From positions 1 to 8,008 of the IMG/VR virus record IMGVR_UViG_2534682157_000011: 8,008 nt of DNA. The stretch is one strand, 5' to 3'. Below the pieces are notes generated by a model that was given only the letters and a program-made list of their open reading frames with translations, had not been told where the DNA came from and did not search any database. This DNA comes from a virus (Duplodnaviria; Heunggongvirae; Uroviricota; Caudoviricetes). Both the position numbers and the translations under genes were made by a program. Below are positions 4,177 through 5,883 of the stretch, piece by piece. Position 1 is the first letter of the stretch; each line of letters starts with the position of its first letter.

Positions 4177-4740
4177 ATGACTACTCTCCCAACCCTCTCT
4201 CAACCTGAAATTGCCATCGTTGATGGTCAGGCTGTTACATCTTCTTTGGCTGTTGCTGACTTTTTCTCTAAACGTCATGACGATGTTCTGAAAAAGATCC
4301 GCATTTTGGATTGTTCTCCAGAGTTTTGTGCCCGCAATTTTGCGGAGACATCAATTTTGGTACGCCAGCCCAACGGCGGTACTCGCAAACTACCTTGCTA
4401 TCAAATAACCCGCGACGGCTTTGCGTTTCTTGCTATGGGTTTCACGGGTAAACGTGCTGCCCGGTTCAAAGAGGCATACATCAATGCCTTTAACCAGATG
4501 GAGAAGAGTTTATCAGGTGCCGATGCGTCTGATATGTCAGCTGTCGCACGAAACGCCAGAGGCGTATACCTGCATTTGCGTGAAATCCATCAAATCTGGA
4601 CAAGCCAGCTTTATCCAATGCTTAAGGCTGTTGAATCTCCGCTGGCCAGCAAACTGTACGACCGTGTAGGTGATGCTGTTTTTGGTGCTGCACTTGTTGA
4701 TTCCAGGCTGAATGGTTCTGACAAGGAGGTTCGCCTATGA
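4177..4740 (+). CDS. Rha-family phage regulatory protein (antirepressor-like), copy 1
   Basis: Begins MTTLPTLSQPEIAIVDGQAVTSSLAVADFFSKRHDDVLKKIR and contains KLPCYQITRDGFAFLAMGFTGKRAARFKEAYINAFNQME, which matches the Rha-family core from memory. SD-like GGGG 8 nt upstream of ATG 4177. The track ORF 3718..4740 starts at a TTG far upstream and is treated as leader; the true start is uncertain. Confidence 0.8.
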   Translation: MTTLPTLSQPEIAIVDGQAVTSSLAVADFFSKRHDDVLKKIRILDCSPEFCARNFAETSILVRQPNGGTRKLPCYQITRDGFAFLAMGFTGKRAARFKEAYINAFNQMEKSLSGADASDMSAVARNARGVYLHLREIHQIWTSQLYPMLKAVESPLASKLYDRVGDAVFGAALVDSRLNGSDKEVRL

Positions 4741-5036
4741 TCCGCTACCTGAATATTGATTCTACAATTCCGGGACGTTACACTGTTCCGGCACCTTATA
4801 AAGCGGGTGCCGGGCGTGGAAACCCGGAATTCAATATAGAGCACAACCGCGCTCATGCGGTTTTTTCGTGTCATGAGCATCGTTACGCCCAAATTATGGT
4901 GGGGCGTGCAGGGCCAACTTCGGTTGGGCCGGGTTCTATGTTGACCGGTATTTCCACCCCTGTACGTCTCACCACCTATATGGTCGTGGAAAGCCTTGGT
5001 GGTGAGTTCATTGAATTCAACATAGGGGCTGTCACC
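4741..5036 (+). promoter_or_regulatory. Conserved hairpin-rich leader upstream of rha copy 2 (candidate cis-regulatory RNA)
   Basis: Outer stem AATTCCGGG (4766-4774) / CCCGGAATT (4823-4831) encloses inner stem CCGGCACC (4788-4795) / GGTGCCGG (4806-4813). Terminator-like AACCGC-GCTCAT-GCGGTT followed by a T-run (4845-4866). UUCG-tetraloop hairpin CCAAC-TTCG-GTTGG (4914-4927). Stem CTCACCACC (4968-4976) / GGTGGTGAG (4998-5006), ending ~30 nt before the rha ATG. Confidence 0.4.
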
Positions 5037-5588
5037 ATGACTACTCTCCCAACCCAATCTCACCCTGAAATCACGATTATCAATGGTCGTGTTGTCACCA
5101 CATCTCTTGCAGTTTCGAATTACTTTACTAAACGGCATGAGCGGGTTTTAGATAGAATTCGAAACCTCGAATGTTCCGCTGAATTTACTGAACACAATTT
5201 TGTGTTAAGTGAATACACCGACGCATCAGGCCGCAAACTTCCCTGCTATCAAATCACCCGCGACGGTTTTGCGTTTCTTGCCATGGGCTTCACTGGTAAA
5301 CGTGCTGCCCGGTTCAAAGAGGCATACATCAATGCCTTTAACCAGATGGAGAAGAGTTTATCAGGTGCCGATGCGTCTGATATGTCAGCTGTCGCACGAA
5401 ACGCCAGAGGCGTATACCTGCATTTGCGTGAAATCCATCAAATCTGGACAAGCCAGCTTTATCCAATGCTTAAGGCTGTTGAATCTCCGCTGGCCAGCAA
5501 ACTGTACGACCGTGTAGGTGATGCTGTTTTTGGTGCTGCACTTGTTGATTCCAGGCTGAATGGTTCTGACAAGGAGGTTCGCCTATGA
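5037..5588 (+). CDS. Rha-family phage regulatory protein (antirepressor-like), copy 2
   Basis: Begins MTTLPTQSHPEITIINGRVVTTSLAVSNYFTKRHERVLDRIR, with the same Rha core. Differences from copy 1 across the core are mostly synonymous or conservative, and the C-terminal ~98 codons are identical at nucleotide level. SD-like GGGG 8 nt upstream. The track ORF 4737..5588 is a longer in-frame reading through the leader. Confidence 0.8.
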   Translation: MTTLPTQSHPEITIINGRVVTTSLAVSNYFTKRHERVLDRIRNLECSAEFTEHNFVLSEYTDASGRKLPCYQITRDGFAFLAMGFTGKRAARFKEAYINAFNQMEKSLSGADASDMSAVARNARGVYLHLREIHQIWTSQLYPMLKAVESPLASKLYDRVGDAVFGAALVDSRLNGSDKEVRL

Positions 5589-5883
5589 TCCGCTACCTGA
5601 ATATTGATTCTACAATTCCGGGACGTTACACTGTTCCGGCACCTTATAAAGCGGGTGCCGGGCGTGGAAACCCGGAATTCACCAAAGCGCACAACCGCGC
5701 TCTTGCGGTTTTTTGTGTCATGAGCAGCATTACGCCCAAATTATGGTGGGGCGTGCAGGGCCAACTTCGGTTGGGCCGGGTTCTTTGGTGACCGGTATTT
5801 CCACCCCTGTACGTCTCACCACCAATAAGGTCGTGGAAAGCCTTGGTGGTGAGTTATTAAAAATCACCAAAGAGGCTGCCATC
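5589..5883 (+). promoter_or_regulatory. Conserved hairpin-rich leader upstream of rha copy 3 (candidate cis-regulatory RNA)
   Basis: 5' double hairpin identical to copy 2. Terminator-like hairpin keeps its stem with a changed loop (AACCGC-GCTCTT-GCGGTT plus T-run, 5693-5714). UUCG hairpin at 5761-5774. A 1-nt deletion relative to copy 2 right after the T6 tract breaks the long reading frame but leaves every hairpin intact. Confidence 0.4.

Follow-up and report, generated by a model that had tools for sequence, protein, structure and literature searches.

Three tandem RNA immunity cassettes in a lambdoid prophage contain long reading frames that resemble P4 eta and run over the regulatory RNAs into rha

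We analyzed a stretch of 8,008 nucleotides (nt) of a virus of the class Caudoviricetes (IMG/VR record IMGVR_UViG_2534682157_000011, positions 1 to 8,008), which is referred to as the window throughout. It covers part of the early-right operon of a lambdoid prophage and contains, between a cII-like gene and an O-like replication gene, an array of three tandem repeats of ~848 nt, each of which closes with a Phage_pRha gene, as established by a three-copy alignment and Pfam. We found that each repeat is an RNA immunity cassette of the P4/P1 type, and the long open reading frames (ORFs) that enter the rha genes from upstream are probably native equivalents of the eta frame of P4, in which ribosomes would transit over the immunity RNAs into rha, the counterpart of kil. 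The reading frames and ribosome sites of the array are the following.

3718..4740, + strand: long frame of unit 1, 340 amino acids (aa) when counted from TTG 3718 (the first ATG is 3763), crossing leader 1 to enter rha1.
4177..4740, + strand: rha1, the nested short gene of unit 1, 187 aa, Phage_pRha PF09669 with 95.4 bits.
4723..4729, + strand: Shine-Dalgarno (SD) motif AAGGAGG of the unit 2 long frame, assigned from the sequence.
4737..5588, + strand: long, eta-like frame of unit 2, 283 aa, intact, its ATG overlapping the rha1 stop.
5037..5588, + strand: rha2, the nested short gene of unit 2, 183 aa, PF09669 with 105.5 bits.
5571..5577, + strand: SD motif AAGGAGG of the unit 3 long frame, likewise assigned from the sequence.
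5585..5791, + strand: long frame of unit 3, truncated to 68 codons by a UGA at 5789-5791 that falls within the b' loop of C4-3 and precedes the rha3 AUG by 92 nt.
5884..6429, + strand: rha3, the nested short gene of unit 3, 181 aa, PF09669 with 107 bits, in frame with AUG 5743 inside C4-3 (ORF 5713..6429).
6426..6650, + strand: the gene after the array, 74 aa, its ATG overlapping the rha3 stop and its start resembling the cassette head.

The original prediction for this DNA had described the motif AAGGAGG ahead of ATG 4737 and ATG 5585, followed by a 283-aa ORF and a 68-codon ORF, respectively. Both motifs (4723-4729 and 5571-5577) are located 7 nt before their ATG, which in each case forms an ATGA overlap with the TGA of the rha gene before it, and both ORFs are present, the former in frame with rha2 (ATG 5037). 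The rha frame of copy 1 is likewise open through its leader. In unit 2, the long frame passes the candidate promoter, IsrK-2, C4-2, and a2/b2-2 before it enters rha2; the 283-aa protein corresponds exactly to an NCBI entry named "Rha family phage regulatory protein" that is found in 22 contigs, and residues 15 to 92 of this long frame match PF10554 (Ash). The truncated product of unit 3 is identical to EGW99324.1. Overlaps of start and stop codons as ATGA were observed at 3572, 4737, 5585, 6426, and 6647, that is, at all gene boundaries of the stretch that begins with the cII-like gene, includes the array, and ends with the O-like gene, and the GTG start at 7462 overlaps the stop of the O-like gene in the same manner. 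The presence of the ATGA overlap at every boundary suggests that the early-right operon is a chain of translationally coupled ORFs. Upstream of the array, a DUF4222 gene (3720-3899; PF13973, 51 bits) is overlapped over its full length by the long frame of unit 1, in a different reading frame, and the frame that overlaps it stays open back to the stop of the cII-like gene in 37 unique relatives.

The segment ahead of each rha gene had been labeled simply as a leader, a designation that missed two known RNA families, IsrK and C4, for which Rfam matches were obtained in all three units. The gathering scores that apply are 50 for RF01394 (IsrK), 45 for RF01695 (C4), 46.7 for RF03163 (a1/b1), and 26 for PF10554. 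The RNA elements, including the small RNAs (sRNAs), are arranged as follows.

3896..3924, 4756..4784, and 5604..5632, + strand: candidate internal promoters of units 1, 2, and 3, that of unit 2 lying downstream of ATG 4737.
3931..4007, + strand: IsrK/seqA-like sRNA of unit 1, which carries a1/b1 targets and ends in an intrinsic terminator (3985-4002 plus a T run), RF01394 with 60.1 bits.
4791..4867, + strand: IsrK/seqA-like sRNA of unit 2, with its terminator at 4845, RF01394 with 62.0 bits.
5639..5715, + strand: IsrK/seqA-like sRNA of unit 3, with its terminator at 5693, RF01394 with 61.5 bits; the U tail is the T6 run 5709-5714.
4032..4119, + strand: C4/CI-type antisense RNA of unit 1, RF01695 with 82.3 bits, b' loop CGGUAGUC.
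4892..4979, + strand: C4/CI-type antisense RNA of unit 2, RF01695 with 82.4 bits, b' loop UAUGUUGA, in-frame AUG 4896.
5739..5826, + strand: C4/CI-type antisense RNA of unit 3, RF01695 with 83.6 bits, the highest score of the three, b' loop UUUGGUGA.
4980..5036, + strand: a2/b2 targets of C4-2 and the rha2 ribosome site UCAACAUAGGGG, assigned by complementarity.
4120-4176 and 5827-5883, + strand: a2/b2 target regions of units 1 and 3.

The RNA score of C4-3 is not lowered by the frame break in unit 3. Matches of the window to the a1/b1 family RF03163 are weak (21.7 to 25.6 bits) and remain under its gathering score. The consensus fold of C4, derived from seven variants including that of P4, comprises 27 pairs, of which 11 are compensatory and none is broken. 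The b' loops CGGUAGUC, UAUGUUGA, and UUUGGUGA are complementary to GACUACCG, UCAACAUA, and UCACCAAA, respectively, each in its own unit and directly before GGGG or GAGG and the rha ATG. Across relatives, the a' and b' loops of C4 covary with a1/b1 and a2/b2, which gives rise to at least four a-types and at least five b-types in mosaic combinations. Within the window, the b' loops differ among all three C4 RNAs, and the a' loop is also different in unit 1. The loops of each C4 match the a1/b1 and a2/b2 targets of the same unit, so that three immunity specificities are combined in the array. A crude RNAduplex comparison of the whole C4 loop regions with the targets placed the cognate pair best in each row, with C4-1 against target 3 within 1 kcal/mol; because of this small margin we used direct complementarity and covariation instead. 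A mosaic arrangement was noted in the related record L004 (IMGVR_UViG_2778261590_000001), where the segment 3059-3348, equivalent to window positions 5595-5883, combines in unit 3 an a1/b1 and a C4 loop of the unit 2 type with an a2/b2 that is still type 3. This is either a gene-conversion tract or an assembly collapse, and whichever the cause, rha3 in that record is without a cognate C4 b' loop.

Each candidate promoter consists of TTGATT and TACACT separated by 17 nt, is located 6 nt before the 5' end of the Rfam IsrK match in all three units, and agrees with the consensus at 8 of 12 positions; both hexamers are invariant in 42 relatives. A further AUG is found in the 5' stem of C4 (AUUAUGG) at 4036, 4896, and 5743. 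It is in frame with rha and 47 codons upstream of it, so that a 230-aa intermediate form of Rha may be produced from transcripts of the internal promoter.

To assess the conservation of the long frame, we compiled 251 related loci that contain 133 unique units, all of which are enterobacterial and related to each other at 72 to 100% identity. A number of observations can be derived from this sample. (i) In 132 of the 133 unique units, one frame is free of stops all the way from a point ahead of the candidate promoter, across the leader, to the effector, and the sole leader break is that of copy 3 in the window. Conservation of the long frame in homologous arrays, a point on which the original prediction had left its reading of the junction ATGs to depend, is thus the rule. 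(ii) The mean number of stops per leader is 0.0 in the rha frame, 3.25 in frame +1, and 4.99 in frame +2, and the number of distinct stop positions among 132 unique related units amounts to 0, 26, and 21, respectively. The open rha frame is significant in each half of the leader alone, with P values of about 1e-4 and 4e-5. The frame is therefore open far beyond chance, and this stop-codon census rules out an ORF that is open merely by chance. (iii) Apart from the one in the window, all leader insertions and deletions are net multiples of 3. (iv) The amino acid sequence is not maintained. The ratio of nonsynonymous to synonymous changes (dN/dS) in the leader is 0.87 to 1.06, with no excess of changes at third positions, as compared to 0.34 in the neighboring rha gene, and the differences between the leader and P4 are distributed evenly over the codon positions. 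The matches to PF10554 exceed the gathering score (29.6 to 38.6 bits for the leaders), yet the leader is devoid of purifying selection at the protein level. The conservation of the frame without conservation of the peptide suggests that selection acts on the transit of ribosomes and not on the peptide.

Tandem arrays are common, since 33 of 243 loci contain two or three units. In the IMG/VR loci L164, L152, L159, L181, and L189, two or three cassettes are spaced ~656 nt apart, and their effectors, of ~72 or 115 to 120 aa, are in frame with the same leader. The fusion of the same leader to different effectors indicates that the leader is a portable module.

In the immunity region of P4, which has the order PLE-seqA-cI(CI RNA)-seqC, kil is nested within eta (Forti et al. 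1999, J Bacteriol 181:5225, as summarised in PMC10111431; Sabbattini 1995 and Briani 2000, cited in PMC4825925). According to the summary of Forti et al. 1999 in PMC10111431, transcripts from a promoter internal to eta are terminated and processed into CI, whereas eta is translated only from transcripts of an upstream promoter and in a manner coupled to the upstream gene; its translation prevents RNA-dependent transcription termination, resulting in a read-through that is insensitive to immunity. We found that the long ORF of P4 (8767->8168) starts with ATGATGATG on the stop of ORF88, spans IsrK/seqA (8615-8692; 60.8 bits in Rfam) and C4/CI (8420-8507; 74.9 bits), and enters kil via GAGGCTGCCATCATGGCTAC, a start that is also used by rha3. 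P4 and the window thus agree in (i) the order of the elements and the RNA families, (ii) a long ORF that begins on an upstream stop, before the internal promoter (a candidate in the window), and shares its frame with the nested gene, (iii) a homologous ribosome site and start of the nested gene (GAGGCTGCCATCATGGCTAC), (iv) the presence of replication genes downstream, and (v) the match of PF10554 to the P4 ORF and the window leaders in the same frame, i.e., with the same relation of frame to RNA. They differ in the effector, which is Rha (Phage_pRha, ~183 aa) in the window and Kil (65 aa) in P4; in the genetic context, namely, the early-right operon of a lambdoid prophage between cII-like and O-like genes as opposed to a satellite; in the leader length of 300 nt versus 402 nt; and in the three tandem cassettes with three specificities. 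The Rho-dependent terminator timm and anti-termination are carried over from P4 by analogy.

A second related system is the isrK-orf45-anrP locus of Gifsy-1 in Salmonella, in which the antirepressor-like gene downstream depends on translation that starts at an AUG of the C4 region (orf45) (Hershko-Shalev et al. 2016, PMC4825925) and orf45 is conserved in its nucleotides but not in its amino acids (PMC4825925). An IsrK sRNA that has a promoter of its own, to which the candidate promoters of the window would correspond, and a leaky terminator is followed, in the same order as in the window, by a processed downstream RNA (STnc1160, a C4/CI homologue). The first AUG of orf45 is at +107 from the IsrK start (PMC4825925), and the window AUGs 4036, 4896, and 5743 match this position within 1 nt. 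In contrast to the window, where this AUG shares the frame of rha, orf45 terminates at the anrP start (AUGA), which is in another frame. A long ORF upstream of the isrK promoter is not described for Gifsy-1 in that study, and regulation there consists of activation by IsrK in trans (PMC4825925).

The third system is the immI operon of P1 and P7 (c4, a1/b1, a2/b2, icd-ant). The effector in P1 is Icd/Ant instead of Rha, and to our knowledge no long frame across c4 has been described in P1. Variants of C4 specificity give rise to heteroimmunity, for example, between P1 and P7. The part of the literature that we draw on (Citron & Schuster 1990, cited in PMC2864571; Rfam RF01695 and RF03163) describes a C4 RNA that, as predicted for the window, is processed from the transcript of its target, with a' and b' loops that pair with targets on both sides and a downstream target that covers the ribosome site of the first gene. 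The P4 design itself is already known, and homologues of CI/seqA have previously been reported within Bro-network genes (PMC10111431). New in the present analysis are the documentation of this design in lambdoid Rha cassettes, the quantitative evidence for an ORF that serves for transit only, and a triple array with three specificities.

Taken together, these data make the following mechanism probable. Each cassette consists, in this order, of a putative constitutive internal promoter, the IsrK/seqA-like leader RNA with a1/b1 targets and its terminator, the C4/CI RNA, and a2/b2 over the rha ribosome site; translation of the long frame would begin before this promoter, through coupling to the stop at the end of the gene ahead of it (ATGA), and continue in frame to rha. 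Transcripts from the internal promoter, being without the long-frame start, would give the sRNAs, and C4 would close their rha ribosome site. Transcripts that arrive from upstream, either from the promoter PR or from the preceding unit, would carry the start, and ribosomes would travel over the terminator, C4, and a2/b2. This transit would override termination and C4 pairing, rendering rha and the downstream replication genes insensitive to immunity. The proposal that ribosomes start at the heads of leaders 2 and 3, cross the hairpins into rha, and thereby affect RNA folding or termination had been part of the original prediction and is backed by our comparison and by the P4 precedent. In unit 3 of the window, ribosomes would still cover terminator 3 and stop inside C4-3, leaving a2/b2 and the rha3 ribosome site exposed, and the T6 allele may thus exert a polar effect on the 74-aa ORF and the replication gene.

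A number of points weigh against this mechanism. (i) The sampled units are related, so that part of the frame conservation reflects shared descent. (ii) Our account of the P4 mechanism is taken from the summary in a later paper (PMC10111431). (iii) The short ORF of Gifsy-1 is out of frame with its effector, and the in-frame design is thus not universal in the family. (iv) A generic promoter scan did not flag the candidate internal promoter, so its assignment rests on position and invariance. (v) The DUF4222 context of unit 1 has no ATG at -300, and the long frame of this unit must, somewhat awkwardly, overlap a gene in another frame that is supported by Pfam.

The break in copy 3 had been described as a 1-nt deletion immediately after a T6 tract. 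One base is indeed missing after the T run (alignment column 148), but the lesion is a contraction of T7 to T6 at 5709-5714 and not a deletion beside a normal T6, since relatives with the same leader type read T7 followed by G (GCGGTTTTTTTG). At the related sites, a census of the run gave 77 cases of T7G, 74 of T6CG, 3 of T6CA, and 1 of T6G. The second lesion is located before unit 1, where a run of G6 in 116 related loci is reduced to G5 (3709-3713) in the window alone. In relatives, a long frame runs from the equivalent of ATG 3572, where it opens a frame of 606 to 609 nt upstream of rha1, through leader 1 into rha1; the G5 contraction splits this frame and leaves the following remnant.

3572..3733, + strand: remnant ORF, in which the long frame of unit 1 begins far upstream, with an ATG overlapping the stop of the cII-like gene; it is cut off by the G5 run 3709-3713.

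The same G run is also likely the SD of the DUF4222 gene (GTG 3720).

It is possible, albeit in our view not the likelier case, that the copy 3 break and the G5 run are sequencing or assembly errors and that the true prophage has three intact long frames. Both lesions are single-base contractions of homopolymers of at least 6, and they are the only two indels that distinguish the window from the near-identical L004 over 5.4 kb. Each contraction is unique among the sites in relatives (117 for the G run and 155 for the T run). The exact T6 string has no match in 2.9 million viral contigs, as compared to 65 for T7, and no match of at least 99% to the T6 allele was found in 335 complete E. coli genomes, a search in which the short query cannot separate T6 plus one substitution from T7. 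Furthermore, the window is a contig of 8,008 bp from a draft genome, that of E. coli STEC_DG131-3. On the other hand, the frameshifted C-terminal peptide ...NRALAVFCVMSSITPKLWWGVQGQLRLGRVLW is found behind different heads in four further proteins of the databases, whose sources include Logan assemblies and a 5.05-Mb NCBI contig, which indicates that the T7-to-T6 slip has arisen independently more than once, be it by mutation or by error; many contigs have the 53-aa product of the G5 variant on record; and the left 2.7 kb of the window show no net indel with respect to complete genomes, so that errors are not a general property of the contig. The break in copy 3 is either sporadic decay or a sequencing error.

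According to another explanation, the N-terminal 100 residues form a real folded domain (Pfam "Ash") that aids the function of Rha or the antirepressor, and the RNA motifs merely overlap with it. PF10554 does exceed its gathering score in leaders 1 and 2 and in the L004 unit, at 29.6 to 38.6 bits, and Ash is regarded as a domain of Rha proteins in databases and in the literature (PMC8951638). We consider this explanation unlikely, since the leader has a dN/dS of ~1 and no codon periodicity, its differences from P4 are independent of codon position, and its variation is concentrated in the C4 loops and their targets, where it is compensatory at the RNA level. In P4, moreover, PF10554 matches the obsolete "cI protein" ORF 8168-8584 over the CI RNA (59.7 bits, L084), and published genetics attributes P4 immunity to that RNA (PMC4825925). 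The real derepressor of P4, epsilon (7888-8175), matches PF25738 and not PF10554, which has served as an epsilon marker in at least one survey of P4-like satellites (PMC8628076); annotations based on PF10554 therefore need to be read with caution, as this family is not the P4 epsilon derepressor. A protein search with the 100-aa leader peptide retrieved mostly partial "ash family" fragments, and the NCBI names "ash family protein," "peptidase," and "immunity protein" are given to translations of this RNA region.

The original prediction had explained the junction ATGs by duplication, which would have grafted an SD and an ATG onto the leaders and created chimeric ORFs. In this scenario, a duplication end point in the first codons of the downstream gene placed the SD and ATG before leaders 2 and 3 by chance, the resulting ORFs have no selected role, and copy 3 is drifting. 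The units are clearly duplicated and mosaic, the junctions have ATGATCCG and GAATATT in common with the start of the 6426 gene, and genes after rha in relatives often begin with ATGATCCGC... behind the same GACAAGGAGGT. The repetition of the 6426 start at the junctions is limited to these two elements, though; nothing else is shared, the junctions hold 6 extra bases (CTACCT) that a simple ATATT-microhomology junction would be without, and the AAGGAGG claimed upstream of 6426 is in fact AAGGGGG. More importantly, single-copy leaders in at least six upstream contexts that are unrelated to each other are likewise headed by an in-frame ATG, ~300 nt from that of the effector and mostly with an SD and an ATGA overlap on the upstream stop (for example, GGGAGGTGCATCAATGACGCGCCACCAGCATATTGATTC, GGCGGGTGCTGCATGATTGTTCTCCAAAATATTGATTC, and GAGTAGGTACAAAATGATCCGCAACCAACATATTGATTC). 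An ATGA-coupled ATG at exactly the window distance was found in 33 unique units, and the exact head of the window, ATGATCCGCTACCTGAATATTGATTC, is also found before leaders located behind genes other than rha. The design of P4 is the same, and the retention of the frame in all but one of the unique units, with 0 stop positions as compared to 26 and 21, is equally at odds with ORFs devoid of a role. The single-copy contexts rule out a duplication-specific origin of the ATG, and duplication by chance as the explanation of the long frames is very unlikely. As judged from the sequence comparison, ATGs 4737 and 5585 are native cassette starts and not products of duplication, and the likeness to the 6426 gene reflects a shared gene-boundary sequence (SD-ATGATCCGC...) and not a graft.

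A programmed recoding site at the T run, at which ribosomal frameshifting or transcriptional slippage would restore the copy 3 long frame, is scarcely credible and was rejected: the break does lie within a U run, and homopolymers can support polymerase slippage, but U6 is shorter than the runs that give efficient transcriptional slippage, there is no slippery heptamer with an in-register downstream stimulator, 154 of the 155 related sites need no recoding, and the run is conserved as the U tail of an intrinsic terminator. The preference of the original prediction for decay over programmed frameshifting therefore holds.

The junction ATGs and the broken copy 3 are thus accounted for by known biology plus a one-base slip, and the logic of P4 eta/kil probably reaches beyond satellites to lambdoid prophages, among them relatives of Shiga toxin (Stx) phages. 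The module is very common and poorly annotated: thousands of genomes of E. coli, Shigella, and Salmonella list its proteins as "Rha family," "ash family," "peptidase," or "immunity protein"; the first 100 codons of such proteins are translations of two regulatory RNAs. Its leader provides a clean natural case of an ORF that appears to be selected for the passage of ribosomes and not for its product. Because the cassette is located directly upstream of replication genes, it may influence induction and the replication of toxin phages. As a long shot, the three cassettes could form a three-key lock in series that controls transcription toward the replication genes, with the long frames as "transit ORFs" retained solely to let ribosomes bring upstream transcripts past each lock, and with the T7 run of type-3 leaders and the G6 run before unit 1 as slippage-prone switches that repeatedly toggle one lock between immunity-insensitive and immunity-sensitive states, generating heritable and reversible variation in inducibility.

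Other features of the window were noted outside the array. A scan of the window for tRNA and tmRNA genes found none. The ~780 nt between the yfdP-like gene and the cI-like repressor (1205-1980) contain no convincing ORF and no Rfam match, and complete genomes have no feature annotated across the equivalent region; it contains two inverted repeats, 1251-1275/1315-1339 and 1530-1549/1637-1656 (90%). Within the O-like replication gene, four direct repeats of a GTGCAGGAGATTCAC-like unit with a spacing of 21 to 45 nt are found at 6912-7040, and they resemble the origin iterons embedded in lambda O.

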